A stretch of 64,000 nucleotides of DNA, from positions 9,955 to 73,954 of the IMG/VR virus record IMGVR_UViG_3300021963_004264, one strand, 5' to 3'. Source of the stretch: a virus. The notes beneath the pieces are model-generated. The model was given only the letters and a program-made list of their open reading frames with translations. It was not told where the DNA came from and did no database searches. Of the stretch, positions 20,026-48,408 are shown piece by piece. Made by a program: the position numbers and the translations under genes. Every line of letters starts with the position of its first letter. Position 1 is the stretch's first letter.

Positions 20026-20724
20026 TTACTTAAAACCAATTTGCATGAATCTTGTGTACGCAGGTGTTTTCATAATGCCTGCGTACAACCTTTTCTGCAT
20101 TGGGTACTTGGCAAACATTTCTTCAATACTTGTGCAAGTATTAATGTGACCAATGTAGCCTTCGCTGTCGTTGGTTTGCATAGCAATTAATTGACTGCTG
20201 TCAGCAGTATCAAACCAATGTGTGTCCATGTGTTCACAACTGGTATTAATAACAACATCGGGTGTGGTCTGAATAAGTTCACCACCAGTTTCAAATAGCA
20301 TGTTACTGGTACATAATGTACTTGCATCAGCAACAACACCTTTGAACTTCCAACTATCTTGTACATAACGTTGATTGAAACGTTCTGCTAATTCAATTGC
20401 ACCAGCATCAACATCAATGCCGTATACTCGCTTAACATCAGCAATGTTAAACAAAGGCTGTACAATACTGCCTACCCAACAACCTAGCAGTGCAACTGTA
20501 TACTCATGAGTGTATACCATGTTGCGGAATAGTTTTTCTAATAACCAACTCTTGCTTGCCAACTGACCTTTGCTGAATGCATCTCTAGGATAACCACCGT
20601 ATATGGCTCGTTCAAAGTAACTAGGAGGCATAGCAACAAAACTGCTTTCGCTGTCAATGTATGCTTCTACTTTTGCCCAGGTATTAATGTTGATTGTATC
20701 TATTTCGCAGCCACTCATAATCAT
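20026..20724 (-). CDS. Class I SAM-dependent methyltransferase-like protein
   Basis: ALLGCWVG motif I, VYGIDVD acidic motif II, VINTSCEH. Confidence 0.7.
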   Translation of the reverse strand: MIMSGCEIDTININTWAKVEAYIDSESSFVAMPPSYFERAIYGGYPRDAFSKGQLASKSWLLEKLFRNMVYTHEYTVALLGCWVGSIVQPLFNIADVKRVYGIDVDAGAIELAERFNQRYVQDSWKFKGVVADASTLCTSNMLFETGGELIQTTPDVVINTSCEHMDTHWFDTADSSQLIAMQTNDSEGYIGHINTCTSIEEMFAKYPMQKRLYAGIMKTPAYTRFMQIGFK

Positions 20725-23700
20725 TTATCCTTGCTAATGCTTCTACATCATTGCGGTTAGCTTGTGCATATGCACGACCTTCTTCGGCACCACGCTTTGC
20801 TTCTTTGCTAAAGTCTGCGTCTTGTACAGGATGCAACCAACCTTCTAATCTTTCTCGACTATCAGCATCATCCTTTAGTGCTAACTTAACACACTCACGG
20901 AATGCGCTACGCCATGTGCTATACTCATCGCTGTTAAACTTTGTTACACAACTCACTTCAGGCATTGCTTTGAACCTAGTACTTAGTCCTGTTGTAAAGT
21001 CTAGTCCCCAGCTTGTGGCATTGATTACTTGTTCACGATTGAATAGCTTAACACCACCGTATCCATATTCTTGCCCAGTTACTGGGTTACGGCTTGCCCA
21101 AACGTGTACTACTTCTTGGTCATATACATCGGGTATATACCCAAAATCGAATGTATCCAAAATTTCTGCATCGGCGTCTACTACCCAAAACATCTTGCTT
21201 TTAACGCTTCTAGCAGCCTCTTTGTGTGCATTAAATATTCCTGCTATATCTTTGACCCAGGTAGCGTTAAAACGTGCTGTAAGACGCTTATATGCGCTTG
21301 TAGCACCCTGTTCTTTGTATGATAAGAACACAATATCGTAAGGTTGATAGGTACTACCCAATTCTTTAACATATTGGATATCCTTTAGCTTATTTAATCG
21401 GATACTATCTGTGGTTAATTGGGAATAGTCTTTTTGGGTAGGCCATAATCGGAGACCACCATAACTATGAACCTTTTGGGTATGAGGATTCTGTCTTTGC
21501 CAAACATGTATTTTATTAATGCTCAAAATGTCTGGTAGGTAGCCTGCGTCCAATACACTTTGTTCAACACTAACATCAGGATCAATAGTCCACAGGAAAG
21601 GAACTTCCTGATTAGCAAATTCCTGTAGAGCAGTAACCAACTCTGATTTTGTAACATCTTTTAGATGTACCACTGGCCACTGAGGACGCAGACTACCAAC
21701 AGTATTTATTTGTTTTAGATTACTAAAGCTGTTGTTAGCTACATCTTTATCTGTAAGTGTGGTCGAGAATGTACCTTTAGGATACAATCTAATGTTTCTA
21801 TACTTACCATCTTCGTCTGCAAAAACGTGTACGTTCTTTTCGTCCCATTGTGTAGGATAATAATCAAACTTAAAATCGGGATGCACTCTAGTGAAAGGAT
21901 CCACAACCCAATACATAGAATTCTCTACAGTACTGTCTATGTGTGTAAGTTGTTCAATAATATCGAGCTGTGGATCCAGTTTTAAAATAGGAAATTCTTT
22001 TTGTGTACATGCAGGTTCTCGAATGTACTTAGGTCTTCCTTTAGCTTGTGGTACTTTAGGACATAGCATAACGCCAGAATAATCATATTGACGACCTGTA
22101 ACAGGATTTAATTTTTGCCAGACATGTGTTTTTCCTTCATCCCACGTTTCAGGAATAAAGTCAAAGTCAAAATTTTCTAGTACAGTAACGTTAGGATCTA
22201 TGACCCAAAACCAGTTATTAGTAGATTTTTCTCGGCCCAATTCTTCACTATTAAATTTTTCAAATTCTAAATCTTTAAAAGGGCTAATAAAATGTATCAC
22301 AAGTTCAACATTGTTCCACGTTTTAGGAACCCAACGAATACCACCCATGCTTTCAGGATACTTGTGTTTTAGTTGTTCACCTAAATGAAAGCTGTGTATC
22401 ATATTGCGTTGAAAATCAGGTGGCACCCAAGATACTTCTCTAGCTAATTTATATTCTTTGTCGATAAGCCAACAGTCTTGTGTTACTACTCTATAATCAT
22501 TTGGATCTTCTACATAAAGAATAGGGTACTGCTTGTTTCCTGTAGGAGAAGACGAAATGTATTTTGCGTCGTCTTTATTATATTTAACAGGAACTAGTTT
22601 AGCACCGCCGCAACGATTATCGCTAACATTAGTAACACTTAAAGGATACTTATGTTGTAATTGATCTGGTATTTTAAAAATATGAATATACTTTTGATCG
22701 TACTTGTGTGGGACATAGTTGAATACATCATTTAACTCGTGCTCACTGTCAACAAGCCAAAACATTTTAGTTCTACTTTTTCTAGCATAAGTTTCATAAT
22801 TGTTTATATCGGTTGAATAAAAAATATCATAACGAACAGGTACAATTCCTAATTGATATTTGTGTTTAGTCATATCAAATTTCTTATGTACAAGTCGTAC
22901 ACCGCCACAGCGAATATCCCAAGGTTCATTTACTGATTCAGGATAACGTTCGTCTAAATGTCCAGGTATTTTAAACACATGTATATATTCAACTTCGTGT
23001 GTCGCAGGCACATAATAGAGCTTACCGTTAAATGTAAAATCTCTGTCTACTATCCAAAACCAATCAGTTTTACTGCGTTCTGCATATTCATTATATGTTT
23101 CTACATTGAATTCGTCGCTGTCTATAAAGAATATATCATATTCTTTATCAGCAATAGGACAAGCAGGATGTATTTTTAGTTCAGCATTTTGCCAACACTT
23201 AGGTACTAATCTTATACCACCCATCGCTTGAGGATATTTTTCTGTGAGCTGATAAGGCATACGGAAGCAGTGTATGTAATCTTGTTCGAAAGGATTAGGG
23301 ACCCAGTCTAATGTACTTGTGTCGATGCTATGATCATTATCTATAAGCCAAACATAATCATCTTTAAATTTATCACGCTGTGCATAGTTGTTTACATCAG
23401 TTACATATAATACAGGATACTCTAATCCTGCATCTAGGAAGCTATGATATTTTATTTGTGCGCTAGCCCAATTATTAGGATATAGCTTGATACCGCCTTC
23501 TCGCTCAGGATACTTATGTTCTAACTGTCCGCGTAAATGAAAGCTATGAATAAAAGTAGGCTCAAAATTATCTGGAGCCCAGTCAATATCATTGTTTAAC
23601 TTATATTCAGGATCTACACACCACACATGACTAGCATATGGATGAACATCAAAATAATCTTCTGGTGTTGTTGTATATACTATATCAAATGCTTTACGGC

Positions 23701-23983
23701 ATACAATATGATTAACTTGTTTTGTTCCGAGCGGTGTAGTGCGAGGTAATAATTTTACACCGCCATAATTGTTACTGTTCCATTTCCAAATGTGTTCATA
23801 TACTTGGTCATGGTCTGGTGGTCTAAATTCAAATACTTGTGTATCAACAACTTCAATGTTTGGTTCAACAACCCAATACATTTTTGTTTTGGATGAAATT
23901 TGTTCGTAAGATTCTACTTGCTTTGCAAAAGGCAAAACATCTTTTAGTTTTTTATTTTCACCTATGTAGAATATATCAAACAC
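20684..23983 (-). CDS. Tandem-repeat glycosyltransferase-like protein (about 10 GT-A-like modules)
   Basis: Repeat Y(D/P)I.Y...FW.VD...P...H.F...GG.RL.PK ten times; the last module has WVVDAD and WRSAFREC like 43130..44125. Confidence 0.7.
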   Translation of the reverse strand: MFDIFYIGENKKLKDVLPFAKQVESYEQISSKTKMYWVVEPNIEVVDTQVFEFRPPDHDQVYEHIWKWNSNNYGGVKLLPRTTPLGTKQVNHIVCRKAFDIVYTTTPEDYFDVHPYASHVWCVDPEYKLNNDIDWAPDNFEPTFIHSFHLRGQLEHKYPEREGGIKLYPNNWASAQIKYHSFLDAGLEYPVLYVTDVNNYAQRDKFKDDYVWLIDNDHSIDTSTLDWVPNPFEQDYIHCFRMPYQLTEKYPQAMGGIRLVPKCWQNAELKIHPACPIADKEYDIFFIDSDEFNVETYNEYAERSKTDWFWIVDRDFTFNGKLYYVPATHEVEYIHVFKIPGHLDERYPESVNEPWDIRCGGVRLVHKKFDMTKHKYQLGIVPVRYDIFYSTDINNYETYARKSRTKMFWLVDSEHELNDVFNYVPHKYDQKYIHIFKIPDQLQHKYPLSVTNVSDNRCGGAKLVPVKYNKDDAKYISSSPTGNKQYPILYVEDPNDYRVVTQDCWLIDKEYKLAREVSWVPPDFQRNMIHSFHLGEQLKHKYPESMGGIRWVPKTWNNVELVIHFISPFKDLEFEKFNSEELGREKSTNNWFWVIDPNVTVLENFDFDFIPETWDEGKTHVWQKLNPVTGRQYDYSGVMLCPKVPQAKGRPKYIREPACTQKEFPILKLDPQLDIIEQLTHIDSTVENSMYWVVDPFTRVHPDFKFDYYPTQWDEKNVHVFADEDGKYRNIRLYPKGTFSTTLTDKDVANNSFSNLKQINTVGSLRPQWPVVHLKDVTKSELVTALQEFANQEVPFLWTIDPDVSVEQSVLDAGYLPDILSINKIHVWQRQNPHTQKVHSYGGLRLWPTQKDYSQLTTDSIRLNKLKDIQYVKELGSTYQPYDIVFLSYKEQGATSAYKRLTARFNATWVKDIAGIFNAHKEAARSVKSKMFWVVDADAEILDTFDFGYIPDVYDQEVVHVWASRNPVTGQEYGYGGVKLFNREQVINATSWGLDFTTGLSTRFKAMPEVSCVTKFNSDEYSTWRSAFRECVKLALKDDADSRERLEGWLHPVQDADFSKEAKRGAEEGRAYAQANRNDVEALARINDYEWLRNRYNQH

Positions 23984-23984
23984 T

Positions 23985-24152
23985 TTATTTTTTCTCTGTT
24001 TTTTTAATCTGTTGTGATTTTAATTTGTTTAGCGCACTAAGTACAGTTCTCCAAGGATGCTGACTACAATCTTTAGTATGCTTAGGTAAAAGTTCTTTAC
24101 ATTCTACGCATCGGCCTTCTAAAATAAGTTGTGCCTTATCAATCTTGTCCAT
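23985..24152 (-). CDS. 55-aa Cys/His protein absent from the ORF track
   Basis: Hand translation MDKIDKAQLILEGRCVECKELLPKHTKDCSQHPWRTVLSALNKLKSQQIKKTEKK; fills the gap between flanking genes. Confidence 0.6.
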   Translation of the reverse strand: MDKIDKAQLILEGRCVECKELLPKHTKDCSQHPWRTVLSALNKLKSQQIKKTEKK

Positions 24153-25662
24153 CACTTGTATGAACCTTTACTCCATAGTATTTTTCAAATTCTTTAGCAT
24201 CGTTTTCATCGTTAACAATTGGCTGACCTTTAATATTTAAGCTAGTATTAACTAACATAGGACAGCCTGTCTTTTTATGAAATGCCTTAAGTAATTTATA
24301 AAGTCCAGGATGCTGATTTTTGTTTACTGTTTGTACACGACTAGTGCCATCAGCATGTATAATTGCAGGAAACTCTTCTGGCTTTTTACACTTAGCAACA
24401 AATTGCATATAAGGACTTGTTAATCCGTTAACAGGCATTTCAAAATATTCGTCGCAATGTTCTTCTAAAATAACGGGAGCAAATGGGCGAAACTTTTGAC
24501 GCTTTTTAATTGCGTTCATCTTGTTTTTAATGTCACCTCCTCGTGGATCAGCTAGCAGACTCCGGTTCCCGAGTGCTCGAGGACCATACTCAGCTCGCCC
24601 ATTTGCTATCCCAAAGATCTCACCACGCTCTAATGATTGTAGTGCTTTCTTTACAGGGTAGGCACCAGGGATATTAAACCCTAGATATGGACCCTGCCAT
24701 TCTACTCTTTTAGAGGTTAAGTTATAGTAATGTAGTGCGGCAGCGCCTAAGCTACTGCCAGCATCACCGGGGTTAGGCATAATATGTACATTATCATATA
24801 ACTTGAATAAGTGTCTGTTTGCAACACAGTTGAGAGCGACTCCGCCCATAAAAACTAAATTTTTGCTGCCGGTTATTTGTTGTGCCTTTAGTGCATATTG
24901 AAAAATTCGTTGTTCTACAATAGATTGAGCACTGGCAGCAATATCGTAATCAGTTTGATAGTGACCTGATTCGTCTTTGTCGCCTGTACGAATAATAAAG
25001 TCTTTCTCAAAGCCACGTTGTAGATTAACTTTCATTGCTATAGGATTAGAAGATTTTTTAAAAAGTTCTTCTTCCATATATTTTTTAAACATAGGTTCGC
25101 CGTATGCCGACATACCCATAAGAATATATTCATCTTCGTTGGGTTTTAATCCTACAAGATGTGTTGCCGCACTGTAAAATAGACCTAAGCTGCTCGGAAA
25201 CCATGTGCTATGTTTCTTTTTTAGTTTACCTGATTCCCAATGCCAAATACTTGATGTATCAAACTCGCCGATAGCATCTAGAACAATAACAGCACATTCG
25301 TTAAAGTCGCTGGTAAGCACGCCGGCTGCGGCATGCGTTTCGTGATGCATGTATTGTTTAGAGGGAATGTTACTTAGTTCAGGATAAAAGTTTGCAACCC
25401 AGCCCTGCTGAGTAGGTTCTTTAACTGCACTCCAGTTACCTGCTCGCATTAAACGAAGTTGTTTTAATGTTGCATTTTCATGATAAACAACGTAGTCGGG
25501 CTTGCCATATGTAAGAGCTTCAGCCACAAGTTTACGATTTAAGAATCTATCGTTTTTAATTTTGCTGTAACGTTCTGCGTGTGCGGCAAAAACTATCTTA
25601 CCGTCATCTACTACAGTAACGCTAGCATCATGAAACATACTGCTGATGCCAAGAATTCTCAT
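24139..25662 (-). CDS. O-carbamoyltransferase (NodU/CmcH/TobZ family)
   Basis: HDAS, HHETHAA, DAIGE, SLGLFY, GGVALNCVAN, PGDAG, EYGPRALGNRS, FRPFAP, DGTSRVQTV, NTSLN. Confidence 0.95.
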   Translation of the reverse strand: MRILGISSMFHDASVTVVDDGKIVFAAHAERYSKIKNDRFLNRKLVAEALTYGKPDYVVYHENATLKQLRLMRAGNWSAVKEPTQQGWVANFYPELSNIPSKQYMHHETHAAAGVLTSDFNECAVIVLDAIGEFDTSSIWHWESGKLKKKHSTWFPSSLGLFYSAATHLVGLKPNEDEYILMGMSAYGEPMFKKYMEEELFKKSSNPIAMKVNLQRGFEKDFIIRTGDKDESGHYQTDYDIAASAQSIVEQRIFQYALKAQQITGSKNLVFMGGVALNCVANRHLFKLYDNVHIMPNPGDAGSSLGAAALHYYNLTSKRVEWQGPYLGFNIPGAYPVKKALQSLERGEIFGIANGRAEYGPRALGNRSLLADPRGGDIKNKMNAIKKRQKFRPFAPVILEEHCDEYFEMPVNGLTSPYMQFVAKCKKPEEFPAIIHADGTSRVQTVNKNQHPGLYKLLKAFHKKTGCPMLVNTSLNIKGQPIVNDENDAKEFEKYYGVKVHTSDGQD

Positions 25663-25665
25663 ATC

Positions 25666-25809
25666 TTACCTGTAAATGAAAGGATCCATTTTGCGAAGTT
25701 CTTCTAACTTCTTTTTTAACTGCTCCTCTTCTTCAGCAGTTAGCTCTAACTCAGGAGCGTCTTTTTCGTTTTGCTCTTTTTTATTTTCTTGATCTAATGG
25801 CTTGTTCAT
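25666..25809 (-). CDS. 47-aa acidic peptide ending DPFIYR
   Basis: AGAGGA RBS before ATG 25809; stop 3 bp before the carbamoyltransferase start. Confidence 0.65.
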   Translation of the reverse strand: MNKPLDQENKKEQNEKDAPELELTAEEEEQLKKKLEELRKMDPFIYR

Positions 25810-26422
25810 ATAATTCCTCTGCGATTGAATTGTGTACCTGCTCATTACCATGATGTAGTTCGCTGTAATGATCAGGCATCAGTTCTTCGTAATCCTCAAA
25901 TATAGCATTGAACGGCTTATAATACTTATCGTTGAATAATTCATTAAATGCTGGATGCTGGACATCTTCATAAAATTTATTCCATGCATTAAAAAACAAA
26001 TAGTCTATACCCTTGTTTTCAAGGAACGATTTTAATGCAAGTTGATTGATCAGCGTTCTTTCTAGTCCTAATGTGTTCCAATTACAACAATAAAGACTCA
26101 TAAAATCAAATAATTTTTGAAGCTGTTCTTTATTGTTAATGTTATCAGGTACTTGTCTACCCAGTCCAAAATGATGCCATTCTTCGTTAAAAATAACTTC
26201 TTGTCTTTCGTATGTAGTCCAGCCAATAACAACAAAATCAACAGGATTATTTAAACAATAGTTAATTGTTGTTCTTAGAATACGGTCGTTGCCGCCGCCG
26301 GGCATAGCTAAGTTAACAGATTTCATGCCTAGTTTTTCTGCAAGCGGTTGAACAAAACTTATAGACGATTCAGATCCTGCAACATGACTACAACCGTTAG
26401 CAAGCAATACTTTATTTGTCAT
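25781..26422 (-). CDS. SGNH/GDSL-like protein (GCS variant)
   Basis: ANGCSH, NLAMPGGGNDRI, IGWT...R, HHGNEQVH. Confidence 0.6.
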   Translation of the reverse strand: MTNKVLLANGCSHVAGSESSISFVQPLAEKLGMKSVNLAMPGGGNDRILRTTINYCLNNPVDFVVIGWTTYERQEVIFNEEWHHFGLGRQVPDNINNKEQLQKLFDFMSLYCCNWNTLGLERTLINQLALKSFLENKGIDYLFFNAWNKFYEDVQHPAFNELFNDKYYKPFNAIFEDYEELMPDHYSELHHGNEQVHNSIAEELYEQAIRSRK

Positions 26423-27710
26423 ACATTAAATTCCACAGCTCAGGAATGGCATTGCTCATACTTTCATTACGCTGTCGATCAAGCAGGCTGGTATACTTCT
26501 TAAAAATAGCTAACTGTTTTTCCCAATCATCGTGACGATTTTCTTTAAGTGCTTTAATAAGAGCATTGATAGCTTGTAGATTATTTTCTCGTTTAACTAA
26601 AATTTTACTTGTAGGAATCCATGCTTCTAATCGTTCTACTGCTACTGCACGGACACTATCAGGTAAATTTCTAAAATCTAAACTGCGAGGATAGTCACAA
26701 ATTAAAAATGTTAAATGTATTTCTCTGTTATACTCTTGCTCTAATGTTTCACAATAGTCTAGTAATTTGGTTATGTCTAAGATGTTATATATTTGAATAA
26801 CAGGACTAAACAGTAGGCTACCTACTACTTTACTAGCACAGTAGCGACGAACGTTTTCGTCTGTTTGTGTCCAGTGGCTAGCACCACGAATATATTCGTT
26901 TAATTCTCCATATGCATCTACACTAAAGCACATCAACACTTTCTTAAATTGCTCTACAAGATTAATAAAGCGAGGCTTAATATTAGTCATATTGCTATTA
27001 AAAACTAATTCAATATTTTTAGCAATACCTAGTTCAACGCATTTTTCTAAGATCCAGTATGTACGTTCAATTAGCGTAGGTTCGCCTCCAGTGAAATATA
27101 ACTTATTAACACCCGGTAGCCATTCTTCGACCTGACGCAAAAATTCAGGATCATCTTGCCAAGGAGTAATGTGATCAGCAAATTGACCCCAAGTAAAATG
27201 ATCTTTAATAAACTGTCCCGACATAGGATCAATTTCTTCGATACGTTTGTATTCTTTTTGTATCTGACTACTGTTTTGTGGTTGACACATACGGCACTTT
27301 AGGTTACATAAGTTACCTAAACGGAAGTCCAAATACATTGGTGCTTCCTCTACTACATAGTCGTTGTCAATACTGCGCTCAATGCGTTGCATAATGCTTT
27401 CGCCGTGTCCACTGTATTCAAACCAGTCTCGAATATAGTTAGTGCGATAGCTAGGGAAGCCCATCTTTTCTAAATCGTAGCAATGTTCGCAACCCTTAAC
27501 TGTTTCGCCTTCAATCATTTGTTTGCGTATCTTACGCATGTGATTATTGTTCCACACACTTTCAATACGATCACCTTTGTTAAGGTCGAACATAGTACCG
27601 TCGTCGTTTTTAAAGTTGTCGCGAGCAACACAGCACCAGCTTACTGTTCCAGTAGGCTGAGTCATTACATGTATCCATGGATAAGGACAAAATGTTTTAC
27701 TATATTCCAT
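26412..27710 (-). CDS. N-terminal Twitch-domain radical SAM protein
   Basis: CPYPW..CC..CEHC, then CNLKCRMC, FTGGEP. Confidence 0.9.
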   Translation of the reverse strand: MEYSKTFCPYPWIHVMTQPTGTVSWCCVARDNFKNDDGTMFDLNKGDRIESVWNNNHMRKIRKQMIEGETVKGCEHCYDLEKMGFPSYRTNYIRDWFEYSGHGESIMQRIERSIDNDYVVEEAPMYLDFRLGNLCNLKCRMCQPQNSSQIQKEYKRIEEIDPMSGQFIKDHFTWGQFADHITPWQDDPEFLRQVEEWLPGVNKLYFTGGEPTLIERTYWILEKCVELGIAKNIELVFNSNMTNIKPRFINLVEQFKKVLMCFSVDAYGELNEYIRGASHWTQTDENVRRYCASKVVGSLLFSPVIQIYNILDITKLLDYCETLEQEYNREIHLTFLICDYPRSLDFRNLPDSVRAVAVERLEAWIPTSKILVKRENNLQAINALIKALKENRHDDWEKQLAIFKKYTSLLDRQRNESMSNAIPELWNLMYDK

Positions 27711-28906
27711 TAAAATTCCTCTGGTGCATTACCATGCTCTTTTAGGATTTTATAAAATTCAGGGAAAGTGTCCTTAAACTTTTCGTCCCTGTATTGATCA
27801 CTAAACATTGTATGCTTATAGAAAATGTGCATTTTTGATGTATCATAATCTACATCAGTGCAATATTTAACTGAGCTAACAATATCTGGATGTGTATTGT
27901 TAGCAAATTTTTCAAATACTTTCATCTTAACACGCTTAGGCAATACTTTACAACTTAAATGTTCTGGTGTATACACATGATTAAAGTATATAGGTGTATC
28001 AGGAAACTCTTTATCTCGCCAAGCAATAATTTCATCTAGATAGAATATGTTGAATATACTAACAGTATAACATATGTCAGGAAATAGTACAGGAATTTTT
28101 TGATCTAACAACTTTCTTAAGTTATCTCTAACCTGATCCCACTTAGTAGGATTTCTTATGTATTCAAAATGAGAACCAATGCCGTCAATACTAAAACTTA
28201 CCATAACACGTTTAAAGTGTGGCCACAATTCAACACCTCGTTCAGGATAAATGCTGCCGTTCGTATTATAGTTTAGTGTAATGTCTTTACTGCGGCCAGT
28301 ATCAACTAAGTTTTGTAAAATGTCATAGTGGTCGGTAATTAGTAATGGCTCGCCACCATAAAATTCTAGTACTTCTAAGTCAGTACTAATCTCTTTAAAA
28401 TCCTCCCAGAAAGCAGGATTGCGCTCTGGCCAACGGCCTGCTACTCGCATCTGATCCCAAAAACGATTGCCTTCGCCGTCGCGTTTCTTTTCTTCAGGTA
28501 CCCACAAGCTACTAGCAAAGCTGTTGCAAATTCTACATCTATTGTTACATATATTTCCTAGCTTTAGATCCATAGCAATAGGCTTTTGTAACTCTTTAGC
28601 TTCCTGTGCATTTTTTAATGCATCTGGAAAGTCTTTTAGCGCACGTTGACGCTTACTATGCACGCCAGCGTCTTCAGCAGTCCAACAACTATAACAAGAG
28701 GCTGGCTTTTCACCATTTAAGAAATCCTGCCTTAACTTATCAAGCCACTCACTGTTCCATCCGTCGCTTAGTGTATTCTCTGCAAGATTTAGTTTCTTAC
28801 CATCAGGGCCTTTAATCAATTCGTCCATTTGACAGCAAACACTCATGTGTCCATCAGTACGTGCTTCAATGTTTACGAAAGGCATTGGACAAAAATGTTT
28901 GCTCAT
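27710..28906 (-). CDS. N-terminal Twitch-domain radical SAM protein
   Basis: CPMPF..CC..CYSC, then CNNRCRIC, YGGEP, TNG, SIDG. Confidence 0.9.
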   Translation of the reverse strand: MSKHFCPMPFVNIEARTDGHMSVCCQMDELIKGPDGKKLNLAENTLSDGWNSEWLDKLRQDFLNGEKPASCYSCWTAEDAGVHSKRQRALKDFPDALKNAQEAKELQKPIAMDLKLGNICNNRCRICNSFASSLWVPEEKKRDGEGNRFWDQMRVAGRWPERNPAFWEDFKEISTDLEVLEFYGGEPLLITDHYDILQNLVDTGRSKDITLNYNTNGSIYPERGVELWPHFKRVMVSFSIDGIGSHFEYIRNPTKWDQVRDNLRKLLDQKIPVLFPDICYTVSIFNIFYLDEIIAWRDKEFPDTPIYFNHVYTPEHLSCKVLPKRVKMKVFEKFANNTHPDIVSSVKYCTDVDYDTSKMHIFYKHTMFSDQYRDEKFKDTFPEFYKILKEHGNAPEEF

Positions 28907-30117: not shown

Positions 30118-30118
30118 T

Positions 30119-36292: not shown

Positions 36293-36310
36293 TTTCTTCT
36301 CCTAAGTTGT

Positions 36311-36342: not shown

Positions 36343-36363
36343 TCAGGTAATTTTACTTGATTA

Positions 36364-40378: not shown

Positions 40379-40388
40379 TGTGTGTCCT

Positions 40389-41924: not shown

Positions 41925-42576
41925 AAATTTTAGTATAGTCCCAACCTTGATCCATAAATTTACTGTGTTGTTTCCAACGCATAATAACTCTATGCATATG
42001 TTCCCCGCCGGCTACCGACCAAATGTCGTTATTATTAAAGCCGTCATTTAATAAATGGTCACTGATTAGTTTGGCATATTTTTGCTTTTTTTCTTGTGTC
42101 ATATCACTTATACATGCGCCTGCAACTATTAAGCCTTTATCTTTTCCGCCTATTGTAAAAATAAGCTGTTGTTCAGAACTTCTTAATAATCTATATAGTA
42201 TACAATCAGGAAAGTCTTTTTCGTAAGCGATAGTACTTGTAGAAAAAATAAACGTGCCTTTCATTTTATTTTCTAAGTATTTTAACAACGTTAGTTTAAA
42301 CCAAAAACCTATTCTCCAAGAGTTTATAAAATTATCATACGTGTCTTTTTGTTCTATCAAAGGTCTAGTATAATCAAAATCGGCACCCTGAATATTTGCA
42401 TTAAAAAATATTCTATCTGGAAGCTCTTTATTTTTTATAGATTCTATGAATTCTTCTGGTTTACTATAATCAACATTATGTCGGCCGAATTTAATAACTT
42501 CGTGACCGGCGGCTTCTAAATCGGCAATAATGTATTTTGCATACTCTGAAGATGCACCAAAAAACCAATATTTCAT
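41917..42576 (-). CDS. Short-chain dehydrogenase-like Rossmann protein (divergent)
   Basis: FFGASS..A..I...LEAAGHEV, FFNAN, FIFSTS, Y-x3-R in place of YxxxK. Confidence 0.55.
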   Translation of the reverse strand: MKYWFFGASSEYAKYIIADLEAAGHEVIKFGRHNVDYSKPEEFIESIKNKELPDRIFFNANIQGADFDYTRPLIEQKDTYDNFINSWRIGFWFKLTLLKYLENKMKGTFIFSTSTIAYEKDFPDCILYRLLRSSEQQLIFTIGGKDKGLIVAGACISDMTQEKKQKYAKLISDHLLNDGFNNNDIWSVAGGEHMHRVIMRWKQHSKFMDQGWDYTKIYD

Positions 42577-43130
42577 TTTTTCTCTTCTTTGGTTCGGTCA
42601 AGCATCATTGAAATAGTAAATCTATCTACTGCGTTGTGATCTAGTAGTCCTACACTATGAAAACTTTTATCCAAAACTTTAAATAATAAAAGTTGATTAG
42701 GTTTCCCACCTATGTCAATCGGATCGTTGCCATACGTATCTGAATGAAATGTTGTACCACAAGCGTTGTTTAAATATAAAACACCTCTAATCGGCACATG
42801 TATCCAATGTGTATCATTATGAATATGTAATTTATTTCCAGCTGGAAGTAAGTTAACAGAAGACTTGTTTTCTATGCAGTTTTCTTGCCAAACCAGATTA
42901 ATAGCATTTAACATTTCACTTTCATATTTTAATAATACTTCCATTAGTGGGTGGCCTGATAAAGACATAAAGCCTTCTAATTTATCATTAGTTACAAAAT
43001 AATCCAATAAGTATTTTTTATGTGCTGCATCAAATAATTGAGGATCAAAAAAGTTGTCAATGAGTATGTACTCTGTGCCATGACAGACTTTTATATTTTC
43101 TCGACATATTTGATCAATGTTTAACAGCAT
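42573..43130 (-). CDS. 2OG-Fe(II) oxygenase
   Basis: HND (HxD), LYLN, FHSV, DRFTI; start refined to ATG 43130 (TAATG overlap). Confidence 0.75.
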   Translation of the reverse strand: MLLNIDQICRENIKVCHGTEYILIDNFFDPQLFDAAHKKYLLDYFVTNDKLEGFMSLSGHPLMEVLLKYESEMLNAINLVWQENCIENKSSVNLLPAGNKLHIHNDTHWIHVPIRGVLYLNNACGTTFHSDTYGNDPIDIGGKPNQLLLFKVLDKSFHSVGLLDHNAVDRFTISMMLDRTKEEKK

Positions 43131-44125
43131 TATAACAAGCCTTTTTCCAGCAGTTCTTGGATCTGTTTTTCTCGAATCATTACACCCCAACGGCGTGGAT
43201 TTACATAAGTTTTTTTAAAGAACTCACACATTTTTGGATTAGGATCAAACAACATCATTTTGTTGATATCTTCATTTAGTTCTTGTCCTAGAGTACATAT
43301 TGCATTATACAACATTTCTTTGTTCCACGCAACCTTTGTATAGCGGCAAACTGTGTCGCCTGCAAACTGTGGAGCGATTTCTTTATTAAAATAATCTTTA
43401 AACCACTCATAGTCTGAAATTTGATTAGTGTCCCAATCTGTTAATACAGTTTTTTGACAGCCTAACCTAGCGCCGTAGATTGCCCACAACCCATTTTCAA
43501 CATCGCTACCGATATTGCACCACGTTTGTAATCTGTTATAATTTTGCCACCAAATTTTATCTGCAAACTCATCTGCACGTACTTTTCGTCCTTGGTCTAG
43601 ACTCATCTTTACGCCTTCACGGAAGCCTGCACGAAAAGCCTGGAACGGACTGGCTGTTTGATGTACTTCACTAAATGTGTCGTTGAGCTGAATATAGTTT
43701 AACTTCCAGCAGAACTCCATGCCTTCGCCATCGCCTGCTGACTCGTGTGTTTGCATCTGTAGTGCATACTCTTTGGGCCAACACTTAAGACCACCGTTGC
43801 CATATACTAATCCGTTTAGTAGGTTCTTAGCGTTCCAGCTAAAGATGCTTTCGCTAATGTTGTTGCCGTCATGGTCTGTATCGGGTACATCTAGCACCTG
43901 TTCAAAGAAATCATCCATTACGATATTATCACCGTCTACAGTAATAAAACGTTCAGTTTCACTTTGTGCGGCAGCGGCTTTGTGCGCGGCATCGAACCCT
44001 TTAACACCGTGAACTCGTTTTGCCCAAGGTACCTTGTTAAGCAAGTCTGCCCAATTTTCTTCCGCATTGGGTTCATCGTAAGAGATATAAAAGATGTCTA
44101 GTTCAGTAACATCAATTTTGGCCAT
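43130..44125 (-). CDS. GT-A-like glycosyltransferase
   Basis: DIFYISYDEP, GFDAAHKAAA, ITVDGD (DxD), YGNGGLK, AFRAGFREG. Confidence 0.65.
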   Translation of the reverse strand: MAKIDVTELDIFYISYDEPNAEENWADLLNKVPWAKRVHGVKGFDAAHKAAAAQSETERFITVDGDNIVMDDFFEQVLDVPDTDHDGNNISESIFSWNAKNLLNGLVYGNGGLKCWPKEYALQMQTHESAGDGEGMEFCWKLNYIQLNDTFSEVHQTASPFQAFRAGFREGVKMSLDQGRKVRADEFADKIWWQNYNRLQTWCNIGSDVENGLWAIYGARLGCQKTVLTDWDTNQISDYEWFKDYFNKEIAPQFAGDTVCRYTKVAWNKEMLYNAICTLGQELNEDINKMMLFDPNPKMCEFFKKTYVNPRRWGVMIREKQIQELLEKGLL

Positions 44126-44158
44126 ATGTGTGTCCTATATTAAGTACACACATATTTA
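44124..44158 (-). promoter_or_regulatory. Late-type promoter with start-codon-occluding hairpin
   Basis: TAAATA 44158-53; perfect 10-bp stem ATATGTGTGT/ACACACATAT covering the AT of the ATG. Confidence 0.75.
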
Positions 44159-44207
44159 TCATGTTATTTGAAGGTATCTATCAAAGGCTGGCCCATATAC
44201 GCCTAAT

Positions 44208-44864
44208 CTAAACTTCTCTTGAATATTTTTCGAATGCTTTAACAGTATAAATGCTACATTCTAATGGGATGTCTTTGATTTTAATGGTTAGCAGTTTATT
44301 AGTTAATAGTTGACGTAACGACACATATTCACTGTGTAACATTATGTGTGGATCGTTTTTTGCTGTAAAATAAAATTTTAAAATTTTATGTCCATTTGCG
44401 GTTGCAGTAAAAGGATCTATATCTTTATATTTTTGTAAAATATTATCGTTAAGCTCAATGATAAATTGATTTTTTGTTAATGTACATTTACAGTCAAAAT
44501 CATCGTTATGGTCAATAAGCATAAGCGAATTATTTTCAGCTGATACTATAGTACTCTCTAAAGGCCTAGATTCTATACTATAAAGATTGTCAACTAGCAA
44601 ATCCTTTTTTACAAAGAAAAGATTCCAATTTTTACCTTCGAGAATTTGTAGTTGGTTATCGTCGAATTCTCGAAACTGCCACTCTGGGTTTGCTTCTATT
44701 TCTTCTTTAGTAATAGAAACAATTGTTCCATCATTTAAAAAATATACTTTTGGCTTTTTTGAAAGTTCTTGCTTCATCAAGGCAGCAAAACTTCCGCCAG
44801 CAGATTCTTTTGACGCTAAAAACCTTAATCTTCGTTCTTCAGCTTCTTTAGATACCATAATCAT
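44208..44864 (-). CDS. Hypothetical protein
   Basis: 218-aa ORF overlapping the GT8-like gene; FYFTAKNDPH. Confidence 0.7.
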   Translation of the reverse strand: MIMVSKEAEERRLRFLASKESAGGSFAALMKQELSKKPKVYFLNDGTIVSITKEEIEANPEWQFREFDDNQLQILEGKNWNLFFVKKDLLVDNLYSIESRPLESTIVSAENNSLMLIDHNDDFDCKCTLTKNQFIIELNDNILQKYKDIDPFTATANGHKILKFYFTAKNDPHIMLHSEYVSLRQLLTNKLLTIKIKDIPLECSIYTVKAFEKYSREV

Positions 44865-45711
44865 TTTCCATTTGTTTAATCATTTTTAGTGTTAGCCAGT
44901 CCTTTTCAACATAATGAAATGGCAACAACTGTTGGAAGTTTCCTACTTTGAAATCAGTATAAGTGTTATAGTAAGTAGGTATAGTTTCAGTCCAGTTATG
45001 GCTTATTATCGATGTTGGTACGTTTTGTACATGGCTTTTCATATGTACAAAGGTAGGAACGGCGTCAATGTTTTCTCTAGTACATTCATGTTCAATGCCC
45101 AATAGTTGCATAGCTAGTGCAAATGCAACATCGCCACTCAGCCTGTCTGGTTTACCTTCGGGCATATACTTGTAAAAGAAACGCTGCCAATGCTGGAACA
45201 CAATTTCTGTCATAGCAAATAATTCACTAGCCAGTTCGCTTTTCTTAAAATAAAAGAAAGCTGTATACACATTAGGTAAATTATTTTTTACAAAATATTC
45301 TCTATAATAATTACTGCTAACAATTTCACCGCGAAAAGTACGTACTTTGGTAGTAGCCCACACATCACGTTGTGATAATATATCCCACCAATGGCTGACA
45401 TCTGTTGGAAATAACATATCAGTATCTAATACAACTGTTTCATCGTATGGCGTCATATGTAGATATTTCCATTTATTGTTAATTTTCCAATCTTCGCCTT
45501 GTGCATCATCTTGCCAAGGAATGTCAACAATATAGTCAAATACCTGTTTGTGTTTGTTGGTGATTTTTTTCTTTGTTTCGGCATCAACACAAACGGTTAA
45601 ATTATTAACACTGCTTTGTGTTAGTTTTAAATTTAACGCAAGAGCATATGCCTGTTGAAGATAATCAACAGATGCATTATTTTGTGCTATTACAATATAG
45701 CCCTTACTCAT
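44848..45711 (-). CDS. GT8-like nucleotide-diphospho-sugar transferase
   Basis: TPYDETVVLDTDML (DxD), FVHMK, FHY; paralogue of 47157..48065. Confidence 0.7.
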   Translation of the reverse strand: MSKGYIVIAQNNASVDYLQQAYALALNLKLTQSSVNNLTVCVDAETKKKITNKHKQVFDYIVDIPWQDDAQGEDWKINNKWKYLHMTPYDETVVLDTDMLFPTDVSHWWDILSQRDVWATTKVRTFRGEIVSSNYYREYFVKNNLPNVYTAFFYFKKSELASELFAMTEIVFQHWQRFFYKYMPEGKPDRLSGDVAFALAMQLLGIEHECTRENIDAVPTFVHMKSHVQNVPTSIISHNWTETIPTYYNTYTDFKVGNFQQLLPFHYVEKDWLTLKMIKQMENDYGI

Positions 45712-46523
45712 TAAACACCTTCTTTAAATTCTGGACAGTAGTAGTCAACGAATCTGTTTTTAATATGTGGCAATATTATTTCTTTAGTAAAATATTCATG
45801 CATAATTCGTGTAGGATGATTATCAGGCCACTTTATTGTTTCTCCGTGTTCTTCAATTTTCACGTCAATTTGAGGGAAATCATTATCAGTCCAGTGTGTG
45901 TAGCACCATTCGTGCATACTGCCTACTGGTAACCAATGGCTCCAATCAATAAGATCTCGCATCCAAATGACATTTGGATTTTTATAAAAATCTGTATCTT
46001 TAAAAACTTCTGATGTAAATGTAGTCATAAAATATTTAATACCTGCCAATTTTAAGTACGATTGTACCCAAAGAATTTTTTCATAGGTATTAACTCTATG
46101 ATTAACAAAATCATGCAAATGCGAATAATAAATTTTAGATGTCTTTTCTTTCCAATGAGGATTCATAATTAACCAGCCGCCGGGATCGTCGTCGACATAT
46201 GTTGTAGGATTAATAAACATACTATCTAAACTTTTAACATCATCACTAAGCTGTCCTTTAATATTAGAAATATATGTGTCGTGCCTATCTGGTCCGCTCC
46301 ACATAATACCTACTAGAATTTCGTCTGGCTTTGCACCTTGATCTAATAATTGCTGTACAGCAAATATTGCTTTTCTAGCAATTAAACTATTACCTTGACT
46401 TGATAAACCCATGTGAACACAGTTAACATCGTACGATGCTTCTAAATGTATTGGCCAGGTATAACGTGTGATAGCATCGCTAAAACTACAACCCGATGTA
46501 ACTATATGTTTAAAGTTTTTCAT
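45711..46523 (-). CDS. SGNH/GDSL-like protein (GCS variant)
   Basis: TSGCSFS, GLSSQGNSLI, IMWSGPDR, DNHPTRIMH. Confidence 0.6.
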   Translation of the reverse strand: MKNFKHIVTSGCSFSDAITRYTWPIHLEASYDVNCVHMGLSSQGNSLIARKAIFAVQQLLDQGAKPDEILVGIMWSGPDRHDTYISNIKGQLSDDVKSLDSMFINPTTYVDDDPGGWLIMNPHWKEKTSKIYYSHLHDFVNHRVNTYEKILWVQSYLKLAGIKYFMTTFTSEVFKDTDFYKNPNVIWMRDLIDWSHWLPVGSMHEWCYTHWTDNDFPQIDVKIEEHGETIKWPDNHPTRIMHEYFTKEIILPHIKNRFVDYYCPEFKEGV

Positions 46524-46525
46524 TT

Positions 46526-47176
46526 TTACTTTACACCACTAGATAACACAATTTTACAAATATGTTCTAGGCGTTCAATGTGTTCCATAGCACGCCATGG
46601 ACTAGTATCTATTGCTACAACCCCATGACCTTTAATGCCAACAATGTCATATGCAATGTTACCCTCACTGTCAAGCTGTAAATTTTCGTGACACTTTACA
46701 GCTAGTTCTTCGCTGATAGGTGGAACATCTGGCACATTAGGTGCTACTCGTGTATAGCGTCCTAGTTCAGGAAAGTCTTTCACTAACTCAGCTAGTTCTA
46801 TTCCGGCGTGCATGGCTGCTACACAATAAGTCGGATGCAGATGCATAACTACTCGCACGTCATTTTTGTGCTGACCCATTTCTTTTTGTAAGCCGAAGTG
46901 TAGAGGAATTTCGCCGCTGGGCTTTAGATTAGCACTAATGTCTGTATAAAACTCTTCTACCCAACCGTATTGTACGAAAGGAGGTGCGGCATATGGCACA
47001 CGATTAATTTGAATCTTTTTAAACTGATCAGGTTGCATTGTCTGCTTACGCACACCACTAGGCGTAATATAAAAATGATTACGGTCGTGGTGACGAATAC
47101 TTACATTGCCGTCACGACTGGTAATCCAGTTGCGCTTATACGCTTCTACTAATGTATCACAGATTGTTTCTAACAT
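46526..47176 (-). CDS. Class II aldolase/adducin family protein
   Basis: DGNVS, ITPSG, PSGEIPLH, MHLHPTY (HxH), KGHGVV. Confidence 0.88.
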   Translation of the reverse strand: MLETICDTLVEAYKRNWITSRDGNVSIRHHDRNHFYITPSGVRKQTMQPDQFKKIQINRVPYAAPPFVQYGWVEEFYTDISANLKPSGEIPLHFGLQKEMGQHKNDVRVVMHLHPTYCVAAMHAGIELAELVKDFPELGRYTRVAPNVPDVPPISEELAVKCHENLQLDSEGNIAYDIVGIKGHGVVAIDTSPWRAMEHIERLEHICKIVLSSGVK

Positions 47177-48065
47177 GATTGATTAATTCCTCACTTATTC
47201 TATTTATTGCCCATTTATTCATAACGTGTAAATCAACATTACTCCATTTAGTAAGCATAAAGTCGCCCGGGCTACGTGGCTTTTCTAAATACATTATCAG
47301 AGTATGATCGTTAACTGCACTGTGTATATCGTCAGTGTCAAATGTTTTATACAGTGTGGTAGGAAGTTGTGGTATTCCTCTATCTTTAAATCCGCTCATC
47401 ATATGAGCCGCTATACTGAAACTGTAATCATTTCTGTATAAACTGCCTTTCCATTTGTAAACGTCTTGATAATATTGTTTATTATTTTTAACATGTTTAA
47501 CACAATTAAAAAAACTTTCTGTTAAAGGCGTTTTACGAAAGTACACAACAGTAGCCCAATACATTGTAATGCCAAAATCGTTTAATCTATTAAGTGTAAG
47601 ATCTTTACGTTCATACATGATGTCCTGGTAACGCCAATTCATCATTAGTTCTTCGTTGTGTCCCCAGCACTGATTAAGTGTATCACTTAGTATTAGGTAG
47701 TCTACATCTAGTAATATAGTTTCTTCATACGGACTTAGATCATATGCATCACAACGATTAACATTATAAAAACTTAATGGCTTTGCAGTATGGCTGGTGT
47801 CTTTAAATGTTCGTATGTTTTGTTCTTTAAACTTTTTATCTTTTTCAACAACAATAAGATTGTTTATTGCATTATCTATAACGTCTTTACCCAAAGATTT
47901 TTCAGCATATTCTAAACTAGCAGGATCGGTAACTACTGTAATATTCTTAATACCTAAATGCTTTTGTATTAAAAGACTGTTTACAACAGCTAGTTTAAAA
48001 TAATCAATTTCTGCGTTGTTGTGGGCAAACATAATGATGCCACGATCATTATTTGCCTTCATCAT
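47157..48065 (-). CDS. GT8-like nucleotide-diphospho-sugar transferase
   Basis: SPYEETILLDVDYL (DxD), YWATVVYF, RNDYSFSIA, HVMNK. Confidence 0.7.
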   Translation of the reverse strand: MMKANNDRGIIMFAHNNAEIDYFKLAVVNSLLIQKHLGIKNITVVTDPASLEYAEKSLGKDVIDNAINNLIVVEKDKKFKEQNIRTFKDTSHTAKPLSFYNVNRCDAYDLSPYEETILLDVDYLILSDTLNQCWGHNEELMMNWRYQDIMYERKDLTLNRLNDFGITMYWATVVYFRKTPLTESFFNCVKHVKNNKQYYQDVYKWKGSLYRNDYSFSIAAHMMSGFKDRGIPQLPTTLYKTFDTDDIHSAVNDHTLIMYLEKPRSPGDFMLTKWSNVDLHVMNKWAINRISEELINHVRNNL

Positions 48066-48408
48066 TGAGATCTAATACCTTATGTACTTTGCGTGACTTA
48101 CGTAGTTTTTCGTACTCTGCATAATAGTCGTTGGTTACTTCAAAGTAACGACTGAGTACTTCATCATAAAAACTTTCAATATCAACTTTAATAGGATTTT
48201 GGTATATGTCTAAAAGAACTGCTTCAGTTTGCTTTTCTTCTAGCAATAATTTACAAAAATTAAGTAGCGAACGATCAATTGTAAACGTGCCACCATTAAT
48301 GCTGTAACTTAATAAACTTTGAGTTTTGGCTCGTAGTGCGGCTTGCTGATTATTAAGTGTAACTCGATAATTAGCAAATTCAAGTGCGTCAGTTAGTCTA
48401 GTGCTCAT
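48049..48408 (-). CDS. Hypothetical protein, possibly tail-fibre assembly related
   Basis: TAAATA 5 nt upstream of ATG; located next to the tail genes. Confidence 0.6.
   Translation of the reverse strand: MSTRLTDALEFANYRVTLNNQQAALRAKTQSLLSYSINGGTFTIDRSLLNFCKLLLEEKQTEAVLLDIYQNPIKVDIESFYDEVLSRYFEVTNDYYAEYEKLRKSRKVHKVLDLNDEGK

Follow-up and report, generated by a model that had tools for sequence, protein, structure and literature searches.

Among the radical S-adenosylmethionine (SAM) enzymes, BtrN is a Twitch-domain dehydrogenase of butirosin biosynthesis that acts on an aminocyclitol (PDB 4m7s/4m7t), and BlsE and DesII (PDB 7vob, 8hzv) act on sugar nucleosides and nucleoside-diphosphate (NDP)-sugars, the substrate of BlsE being of the glucuronic-acid type. 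Virus-encoded glycosylation of virions, for which the viruses encode soluble glycosyltransferases (GTs) of their own, is represented by chlorovirus PBCV-1, mimivirus and the capsid and tail glycans of mycobacteriophages (Freeman et al. 2023, as cited in PMC12619734). As described, these systems include neither radical SAM enzymes nor a carbamoyltransferase nor a ten-module GT-like protein, and virus-encoded glycosylation and radical SAM sugar tailoring have been known only separately. Genes of both kinds are joined in one conserved operon in the DNA analysed here, a window of 64,000 nucleotides (bases 9955-73954 of the 73,954-bp IMG/VR virus record IMGVR_UViG_3300021963_004264; all positions below are those of the window). 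The block at 20026-48408, hereafter the island, lies like the known systems in a structural-gene region and encodes eight radical SAM enzymes amid GT-like and putative sugar-supply and decoration proteins. We propose, at a probability of roughly one half, that the island specifies the soluble, cytoplasmic assembly of a glycan together with its decoration and its editing by radical chemistry, the acceptor being probably a virion fibre protein encoded just upstream. No published description of this operon was found in a literature search.

Organization of the island

A preliminary description of this DNA, made from the letters alone, had noted a tightly packed, co-directional run of genes directly downstream of tail genes, and this observation was confirmed. 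The island consists of 25 open reading frames (ORFs) of at least 80 aa and three small ORFs in the larger gaps, all on the minus strand. Neighbouring ORFs mostly overlap or sit less than 12 nt apart, and only five gaps exceed 70 nt (44126-44207, 37759-37968, 36293-36363, 25663-25780 and 23984-24138). The tail genes were also found on the minus strand upstream, encoding a 521-aa protein with tail-fibre PHROG matches and the 3844-aa protein that heads the list below, which is probably a giant adhesin-like fibre and a candidate glycan acceptor. The island genes then follow from the first (g25) to the last (g01).

52202-63736, minus strand: protein of 3844 aa, PA14/GLEYA lectin-like domain in residues ~1362-1477, directly upstream of the fibre-like genes
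48049-48408, minus strand: g25, 119-aa helical protein, first gene of the block; no Pfam match
47157-48065, minus strand: g24, GT8-like glycosyltransferase by the A5 family profile against glycogenin, paralogue of g21
46526-47176, minus strand: g23, class II aldolase/epimerase family (PF00596, 98 bits), variable gene
45711-46523, minus strand: g22, DUF6071 (PF19547, 38 bits), SGNH-like by motif (G-C-S-F block near the N-terminus), variable gene
44848-45711, minus strand: g21, GT8-like glycosyltransferase by the A5 profile against glycogenin
44208-44864, minus strand: g20, 218-aa protein; no usable match in Pfam, PHROGs or Atlas
44126-44207, minus strand: intergenic region with promoter-like TGATAAATATGT (44150-44161) ahead of g19
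43130-44125, minus strand: g19, GT-A-fold glycosyltransferase-like protein by fold search, with a C-terminal helical domain
42573-43190, minus strand: g18, possible 2OG-Fe(II) oxygenase by an H-x-D...H sequence pattern, variable gene
41917-42576, minus strand: g17, possible Rossmann/SDR-like protein by a Gly-rich N-terminus, variable gene
40389-41924, minus strand: g16, N-Twitch radical SAM, long subtype (NF033640, 323 bits; CNFKCSYC at residue 138)
38702-40378, minus strand: g15, N-Twitch radical SAM, long subtype (NF033640, 313 bits)
37969-38709, minus strand: g14, NeuB-family TIM-barrel without SAF domain (PF03102, 53 bits)
37755-37982, minus strand: small ORF of 75 aa lying between g14 and g13, LDLHG motif (ORF list)
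36364-37758, minus strand: g13, N-Twitch radical SAM (NF033640, 301 bits)
36293-36363, minus strand: intergenic region with a second TGATAAATATGT (36334-36345) ahead of g12
35009-36292, minus strand: g12, NDP-sugar 6-dehydrogenase family (PF00984, 64 bits; PF03721, 55 bits)
33870-35009, minus strand: g11, possible GT10-like protein (TEK-type motif; A7 profile), variable gene
32540-33877, minus strand: g10, N-Twitch radical SAM (NF033640, 298 bits; CNIKCRTC)
31299-32543, minus strand: g09, N-Twitch radical SAM (355 bits in genome scan; CNVRCRTC)
30119-31321, minus strand: g08, possible GT10-like protein (weak similarity to g11; A7 profile), variable gene
28903-30117, minus strand: g07, N-Twitch radical SAM, nearest to the family consensus (NF033640, 402 bits)
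27710-28906, minus strand: g06, N-Twitch radical SAM (358 bits; CNNRCRIC)
26412-27710, minus strand: g05, N-Twitch radical SAM (NF033640, 364 bits; CNLKCRMC)
25781-26422, minus strand: g04, DUF6071 (PF19547, 36 bits), SGNH-like by motif (G-C-S-H block)
25666-25851, minus strand: small acidic ORF ending DPFIYR, 3 nt ahead of the g03 start (ORF list)
24139-25662, minus strand: g03, NodU/TobZ-type carbamoyltransferase (PF16861, 187 bits; PF02543, 145 bits)
23985-24155, minus strand: small ORF of 56 aa with three Cys, between g03 and g02 (ORF list only)
20684-23983, minus strand: g02, 1099 aa, ten tandem GT-A-derived modules (motif anchors and hhalign)
20026-20724, minus strand: g01, possible SAM-dependent methyltransferase (sub-threshold Pfam), last gene of the block

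For g02, g08, g11, g17, g18, g19, g20, g21 and g24, no usable match came from Pfam (E up to 10) or PHROGs, and the Atlas search gave no match for g20. The LDLHG motif of the 75-aa ORF is typical of Smr-domain proteins, and by this motif the ORF may be Smr-like.

Eight radical SAM genes of the NF033640 family

The eight genes (starts at 26412, 27710, 28903, 31299, 32540, 36364, 38702 and 40389) are intact and belong to NCBIfam NF033640 (N_Twi_rSAM, twitch domain-containing radical SAM protein), with scores of 298-402 bits against a curated cut-off of 170 bits and alignments spanning model positions 1-397/398. The number of radical SAM genes given in the preliminary description is therefore correct. 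As in the family at large, an N-terminal four-Cys domain is followed by CX3CX2C and GGEP; the CX3CX2C motif was found in every copy, and GGEP and the four N-terminal Cys are invariant across all eight. In six copies the Pfam SPASM match (residues ~6-110) precedes the Radical_SAM match, the reverse of the usual order. The paralogues are 19-33% identical to one another and fall into two subtypes, one with six members and the other with two. In g15 and g16 the CC pair of the Twitch domain is replaced by S-C-(H/Y)-H-P-P, which may indicate a different auxiliary-cluster ligation, and both carry long insertions or tails. All eight members lie within 15.5 kb, and not one of 14 control genomes gave a match above the cut-off.

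The family is large, comprising 10,343 clusters (50% identity) at E up to 0.001 and 1,582 at E up to 1e-30. It exists as a catalogue entry only: the literature search turned up no paper characterising a member and no description of a phage array of eight old paralogues. When the family profile was compared with solved structures, residues 4-79, the N-terminal domain, aligned to the Twitch domain of BtrN (E 8e-6), and the four-Cys spacing appears similar in the two. The Twitch domain is, however, C-terminal in BtrN but N-terminal in the island enzymes, and the cores are only remotely alike, BtrN being outside the 50 best Z-scores of the search with g07. The core of the family profile aligned best to the uncharacterised radical SAM protein 8vpo, followed by viperin and SkfB. 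In the fold search with a g07 model (AlphaFold2 [AF2], pLDDT 94), the sugar-acting enzymes BlsE (Z 12.3) and DesII (Z 12.2) were among the top matches, with a root-mean-square deviation (rmsd) of 3.5-3.8 Å over 218-229 residues, but identity was 10-14% and they were tied with peptide- and nucleotide-acting enzymes, so that the likeness is nothing sugar-specific. The NDP-sugar dehydrogenase-family gene g12 is, however, located in the midst of the radical SAM genes.

Bacterial relatives gave information of another kind. Six of the ten fused NF033640 relatives examined carry TPR or Sel1 repeats and one carries a GT2 domain, the remaining three having no extra Pfam match. A census of 125 ORFs neighbouring the family, drawn from large bacterial contigs with 22 loci in all, showed most often GT2 (6), PhyH dioxygenase (5), ABC transporter (4) and FAD oxidoreductase (3), with two each of carbamoyltransferase, NDP-sugar epimerase/dehydratase and GT1, enrichment being judged against general expectation only. 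This context is suggestive of a substrate class rather than conclusive.

Glycosyltransferase-like proteins

The preliminary description counted about six GT-like genes, and GT folds or profiles were indeed obtained for g19, g21, g24 and g02, while the assignment of g08 and g11 to GT10 reached only E 1.2. The first 160 residues of g19 adopt a GT-A fold in the AF2 model (pLDDT 85), the best match being B4GALNT1 (VIA Z 10.5, rmsd 3.2 Å over 142 residues), with many further GT-A enzymes behind it; A64R of chlorovirus PBCV-1, an enzyme of virion glycosylation (Z 8.7), and mimivirus R699 (Z 9.1) also align structurally. The DxD motif (D64 and D66) is invariant. Since MobA and IspD, nucleotidyltransferases that share this fold, reach Z ~9, transferase chemistry is only presumed for g19. 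More than 7,900 unnamed metagenomic homologues of g19 were found, and a sequence-profile search of PDB with g19 gave noise only.

The two proteins g21 and g24 are related to each other (BLAST E 6e-6), and the A5 profile built from both and their orthologues matches glycogenin-1 and -2 (GT8) along its positions 2-106, the DxD included, with E values from 5e-6 to 1e-4. The match to glycogenin-2 covers its residues 3-116 with the DxD strand (E 5e-6); however, only the N-terminal 106 profile positions align, at low identity, and self-glucosylation is not implied. H280 and K284 are invariant in the g21/g24 family alignment, in the C-terminal region, where GT8 enzymes have a His-containing metal/UDP-binding motif but which lies outside the part aligned with glycogenin.

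The 1099-aa protein g02 contains ten W-x-[VI]-[DE] anchors spaced 84-135 aa apart. These repeats were missed by self-BLAST and were found by motif anchoring and hhalign. The profile of modules 1-9 matches the g19 family over 61 columns, the core from DxD to GG(x)KL, with an hhalign probability of 97.4% (E 1.3e-11). The modules are about 100 aa long, one beta-alpha unit short of a complete GT-A domain, and only the last is a full g19-like domain (BLAST E 2e-9 against g19).

For g08 and g11, which have no Pfam match, the top PDB match of the A7 profile was Glycoprotein 3-alpha-L-fucosyltransferase A (GT10) at an ENxxxxxYxTEK motif, but the E value given above is no evidence for this family, and the two are at most possible GT10-like proteins. 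The idea that g08 is a decayed radical SAM paralogue was ruled out, as it has no similarity to the radical SAM genes and no CX3CX2C.

Predicted enzymes for sugar supply and decoration

The NeuB-like, class II aldolase and carbamoyltransferase calls of the preliminary description all stand above the Pfam cut-offs. In g03 both Carbam_trans_N (145 bits, cut-off 24) and Carbam_trans_C (187 bits, cut-off 27) are well above threshold, and the NodU equivalog score (149 bits) is far under its cut-off of 1000. Just ahead of g03 is the small acidic ORF, of which the tail LKKKLEELRK(R/M)DPF(I/V)YR is kept in at least 10 related contigs, with a shorter ...FY(I/L) form in others. At two bacterial loci, a membrane peptide ending APFIYTVF precedes the homologous carbamoyltransferase gene. 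The association of NodU/TobZ/SxtI-type carbamoyltransferases with an abutting small ORF ending PF(I/V)Y thus recurs in phage and bacterial loci, which points to a conserved enzyme-peptide pair, although the phage peptide is soluble, acidic and helical whereas its bacterial counterpart is a membrane peptide. The partner may be of the SxtK/DUF5989 type.

The protein g12 had been called a UDP-sugar 6-dehydrogenase. Its N-terminal and central UDPG/MGDP dehydrogenase domains are above the Pfam cut-offs (no C-terminal domain was matched), and by these domains it is a member of the NDP-sugar dehydrogenase family. The specific name is less secure, TIGR03026 scoring 148 bits under a cut-off of 189.8 and all equivalogs falling far below theirs. 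Likewise g14 scores 53 bits against Pfam NeuB (cut-off 22.1) but 38.7 bits against TIGR03569 (cut-off 399.65); with NeuB and PseI equivalogs far below cut-off, a length of 246 aa and no SAF match, it is by profile a NeuB-like barrel and no NeuB equivalog. Every NCBIfam equivalog was below cut-off for g23 as well.

Both genes previously described as SGNH-like, g04 and g22, belong to DUF6071 above the cut-off, and their SGNH nature is suggested by the G-C-S block. Three other labels went unconfirmed: the methyltransferase matches of g01 are sub-threshold in Pfam (E 0.014-0.05), and g17 and g18, named SDR and 2OG oxygenase from sequence motifs, gave no family match in the family-library searches.

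Conservation of the island

The island is conserved as a syntenic block in both related and distant phage contigs. The g07 protein matches 16 IMG/VR contigs at 75-93% identity. At least that many IMG/VR contigs share the gene order of the island, which was also seen in extended stretches taken from four larger records, the locus searches having used the single protein g07 and later a 26-sequence alignment. The core set consists of g25, g24, g21, g20, g19, g16, g15, g14, g13, g12, g10, g09, g07, g06, g05, g03, g02 and g01, and the variable set of g04, g08, g11, g17, g18, g22 and g23; g23 has a copy in only one of the relatives checked (L025). Identity to the orthologues in relatives is 73-87% for g25 (detectable also in L034), 75-88% for g24, 75-90% for g21, 34-49% for g20, 46-76% for g14, 73-93% for g12, 42-91% for g02 and 53-91% for g01. 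In distant contigs, at 30-50% identity, a tail-fibre-like gene comes first, then g25/g24/g21/g19, a set of five or six radical SAM genes, the carbamoyltransferase gene and a relative of g02, with g21 at 30-33%. Four of these distant contigs (L029, L030, L034 and L037) are filed in metagenome-assembled genomes (MAGs) of Legionellales, Verrucomicrobia and Haliscomenobacter, the two from Haliscomenobacter being 148 and 183 kb long; all four are probably DNA of jumbo phages that was binned with bacteria.

The related records carry 6-10 copies of NF033640. In a tree constructed by a quick method, each radical SAM paralogue of the island pairs one-to-one with a gene of the G001 record (support 100), and five orthogroups (g13, g15, g16, g06 and g07) reach the distant phage-like contigs; the g13 orthogroup includes L029, L034 and L037 (support 100), the g06 orthogroup includes the same three, and the g15 orthogroup has support of 98. 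The copies are therefore old, distinct and individually kept, as expected if each does a different job.

Cultured phages contain little of this kind. The preliminary description knew of no characterised phage pathway with such radical SAM content, and in a collection of 50,697 cultured-phage records we found no comparable array; three records match NF033640, the largest with four copies. In K566 and K567, which are KVP40-like Vibrio phages, a single cluster contains four N-Twitch radical SAM genes, all very distant (K566, L001 15001-21800), and no relatives of other island genes were detectable. In the Ralstonia jumbo phage RsoM2USA (343.8 kb; PMC8504454), gp202 is an orthologue of g15 (52% identity) flanked by two DUF6071-like genes and followed by gp199, a carbamoyltransferase 48% identical to g03, so that a sub-module of the island is present (gp199-gp203); the RsoM2USA paper mentions neither carbamoyl nor radical SAM genes. 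Aquatic jumbo phages with four core glycosyltransferase groups are described in the moraphage paper (PMC12619734), in which radical SAM and carbamoyltransferase genes are likewise unmentioned.

Promoter-like motifs and expression

TAAATA, which the preliminary description took as a late-type promoter, is present at 48414, 44153 and 36337 as it stated. This hexamer occurs 39 times on the minus strand of the window and is too common to carry meaning by itself. More informative is its context. TAAATA lies 7-9 nt ahead of the g25 ATG in the window and in four relatives, and the other two sites belong to the exact 12-mer TGATAAATATGT, of which the window has three copies (9374, plus strand; 36334 and 44150, minus strand), each upstream of a gene in the sense direction. 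In four relatives (L022, L025, L027 and L028), a T(T/C)GATAAATATGTG(T/C)GTA version stands some 30 nt before the g19 orthologue, where it is kept although the overlapping g20 gene is only 34-49% conserved, and CGATAAATAGTG, related to TGATAAATATGT, is upstream of the G001 orthologue of g12. A phage promoter of the TGATAAATATGT type is plausible. The conserved island motif GATAAATA differs from the T4-type late TATAAATA, the only exact minus-strand copy of which is at 49909, upstream of a 344-aa gene. The paper on PA5oct, a Pseudomonas jumbo phage, contains no late-promoter motif for comparison, and scans for sigma-70-type promoters and terminators stayed at or under shuffle expectation.

Two metatranscriptome runs from freshwater contain short contigs that match, exactly or almost exactly, portions of g19 and g21, the junction of g22 with g23 and the structural gene upstream; they cover scattered parts only, carry no timing or strand information, and are compatible with expression in nature. 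Shine-Dalgarno-like sequences (AGGA/AGGAG) stand 7-10 nt before ATG in three regions (36293-36363, 44126-44207 and 48409-48852); sequences of such strength are not what a Bacteroidota host would usually show, the MAG binning described above notwithstanding.

Proposed pathway and alternative explanations

A hydropathy scan of the 25 island proteins identified no transmembrane segment and no signal peptide, indicating a cytoplasmic pathway without export or polymerisation machinery of its own. Sugars would be supplied by the NDP-sugar 6-dehydrogenase g12, the NeuB-like g14, the aldolase-like g23 and a GalE encoded elsewhere in the window, roles that are predicted from the families. They would be transferred by the GT8-like g24 and g21, the GT-A protein g19, the ten-module g02 and the variable g08 and g11, for which fold or profile is the guide to a presumed activity. 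The glycan may then be O-carbamoylated by g03 with its small PFIY-tailed partner peptide, handled at its esters by the DUF6071 proteins g04 and g22, and possibly methylated by g01 and hydroxylated by g18. Each of the eight radical SAM enzymes would have a radical reaction of its own, directed at unactivated C-H positions in the sugars; oxidation, epimerisation, deoxygenation, decarboxylation and C-C bond formation are candidates. The putative acceptor is a virion surface protein, the leading candidates being the giant PA14/GLEYA fibre and the tail-fibre proteins encoded on the same strand directly upstream.

A glycan pathway is favoured because GT folds and profiles are present, the block is syntenic, a GT2 domain is fused to one family member, and RsoM2USA retains a sub-module. 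Sugar editing is favoured because the N-terminal domain matches the BtrN Twitch domain and BlsE and DesII are among the top structural ties, and a virion acceptor because, in close as well as distant relatives, the block always comes after the fibre genes and shares their strand. The earlier interpretation, glycan assembly together with radical tailoring, is accordingly supported in part. Several points weigh against it. No substrate is on record for any NF033640 member. In the g07 fold search, the peptide-acting anSME (Z 12.3), CteB (11.9), SuiB (11.8) and SkfB (11.5) and the nucleotide-acting viperin (11.6) and MoaA (11.5) tie with BlsE and DesII; as the top matches fall within one Z unit, structure leaves the class of substrate, whether sugar, nucleotide or peptide, unsettled, and action on a glycan is what we infer for the radical SAM enzymes. 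TPR/Sel1 fusions in many bacterial relatives suggest protein partners, and the counts of the neighbour census are small and without a matched control. Several island proteins have no assignment (g20, g25) or labels at the level of motifs (g17, g18), the virion acceptor and the late timing are read from gene order only, and the contigs from RNA libraries could be carried-over DNA.

The radical SAM enzymes might instead modify a protein or peptide, either virion structural proteins or a small phage peptide, by cross-linking, epimerisation or oxidation, with the GTs acting on the same protein. The structural ties with anSME, CteB, SuiB and SkfB, the TPR or Sel1 repeats and the small conserved ORFs inside the block would all fit. 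We nevertheless consider this unlikely: general scans showed no recognition element (RRE) of ribosomally synthesized peptides (RiPPs), with no RRE-type Pfam match on any radical SAM copy, and the small island ORFs are unlike repeat-Cys precursors, although no search aimed at RiPP precursors was made. Moreover, the radical SAM N-terminus is taken up by the Twitch domain, the conserved small ORF accompanies the carbamoyltransferase in bacteria too and not the radical SAM genes, a GT2 fusion occurs in one relative, and sugar and tailoring enzymes make up the neighbourhood. Remodelling of a host surface glycan (lipopolysaccharide, capsule or glycoprotein) against superinfection or against re-adsorption of progeny to lysed cells, which the preliminary description had kept as its second option, appears about equally improbable. 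Many O-antigen and capsule glycosyltransferases are soluble or peripheral, a lipoprotein gene of moron type is directly upstream (48424-48768), and loci for surface glycans typically include sugar-nucleotide genes, GalE among them. Yet an autonomous role at the host surface is weakened by the lack of own export and polymerisation machinery, the 25 proteins including no membrane protein, flippase, polymerase, ligase or initiating phosphoglycosyl transferase, and the block is co-oriented with the fibre genes and conserved beside them even in distant relatives.

The same position beside the fibre genes speaks against production of a free small molecule, an aminoglycoside- or nucleoside-like glycoside directed at the host or competitors or used as a signal. 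The parts do resemble antibiotic sugar-tailoring, with a BtrN-like Twitch domain, a TobZ/NodU-type carbamoyltransferase and the BlsE and DesII ties, and PhyH dioxygenases and ABC transporters are among the bacterial neighbours. The island, however, contains no cyclitol synthase, aminotransferase, non-ribosomal peptide synthetase (NRPS), polyketide synthase (PKS) or exporter, and at least four GT-like proteins, one of ten modules, better fit a polymer or a protein-linked glycan; we regard this explanation as rather less likely than the two preceding ones. Least likely, with very little probability left to it, is hypermodification of phage DNA by a tailored glycan in the manner of the 5hmC/5hmU glycosylation pathways. 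Phage GT-A and GT-B enzymes do glycosylate DNA bases, and GT-A-like enzymes occur in biosynthetic clusters as here (Pyle et al., bioRxiv 10.1101/2023.12.21.572611); radical SAM enzymes are reported to act in thymidine hypermodification (PMC5889632, PMC8989533). Those clusters adjoin a C5-methyltransferase and a TET-like oxygenase, or ThyS-like genes, whereas neither a ThyA-like hydroxymethylase (PF00303) nor a C5-methyltransferase (PF00145) was found in five related records (18-66% complete, one of them 250 kb) under conditions in which the controls matched. The TET/JBP search (PF12851) matched nothing in the related records, nor in its control. In addition, the phage has a separate, partial 7-deazaguanine gene set among its plus-strand genes, and the block sits with the fibre genes.

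A more specific form of the glycan pathway, which we hold as tentative and decidedly less probable than the general one, is that the N-Twitch family are glycan editors, that the eight members each functionalise a different C-H on a protein-linked oligosaccharide, and that the fibres bear a radical-made sugar coat. If true, this coat would be without counterpart in any characterised viral or bacterial protein-glycosylation system. The carriers are a very common group of aquatic jumbo phages, and the island takes up about 8% of an estimated 370-kb genome, for which host recognition, particle stability and evasion of defences are candidate benefits. Identification of the product would give the first function for a large radical SAM family and probably new sugar chemistry, and the cultured phage RsoM2USA with its sub-module is a possible model system.

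Flanking genes and origin of the DNA

The IMG/VR record is rated about 20% complete (CheckV), which puts the whole genome at roughly 370 kb. Sequencing runs from 18 studies contain this DNA or close variants of it, and most of them carry the label of an estuary, marine, lake-water or freshwater metagenome. Megablast against cultured phages gave no match with either of two 20-kb queries, one taken from the island and the other from the flank. The plus-strand flank encodes an exonuclease, a MoxR-type ATPase and an HNH endonuclease, the ATPase being 46% identical to its counterpart in PA5oct and relatives of that phage. A 224-aa phage protein is encoded on the minus strand in the same flank as the fibre genes. 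Other features outside the island are as follows.

48409-48852, minus strand: region between the fibre genes and the island with a gene for a 65-aa lipoprotein, Ala/Pro-rich tail, own ribosome-binding site (moron-like element at 48424-48768)
773-1753, plus strand: GalE UDP-glucose 4-epimerase (TIGR01179, 335 bits, above cut-off)
1754-2212, plus strand: phosphoribosyltransferase, part of the partial 7-deazaguanine (preQ0-type) set
2308-3117, plus strand: FolE-like GTP cyclohydrolase I, part of the same set
3644-4534, plus strand: weak QueE-like radical SAM gene, part of the same set
11509-12348, plus strand: nucleotide-diphospho-sugar-transferase-like protein (weak match, E 0.006)
12862-13560, plus strand: 2OG-Fe(II) oxygenase (clear match, PF13759, E 1e-11)
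18275-20023, plus strand: 582-aa FG-GAP/VCBS-repeat protein with a hydrophobic N-terminus, converging on the island end

The presence of GalE on the opposite strand outside the island indicates additional sugar-nucleotide capacity of the phage, and the matches at 11509-13560 provide more candidate tailoring genes beyond the island. The partial 7-deazaguanine set (1754-4534, plus strand) stands apart from the island amid nucleotide-metabolism genes; a TGT/DpdA-family gene was not found in this record or in four related records. On either side of the lipoprotein gene is one copy of a terminator-like hairpin, and the gene has the appearance of a moron. A VCBS-repeat protein, like the one converging on the island end, is encoded by RsoM2USA too, according to its paper (PMC8504454).

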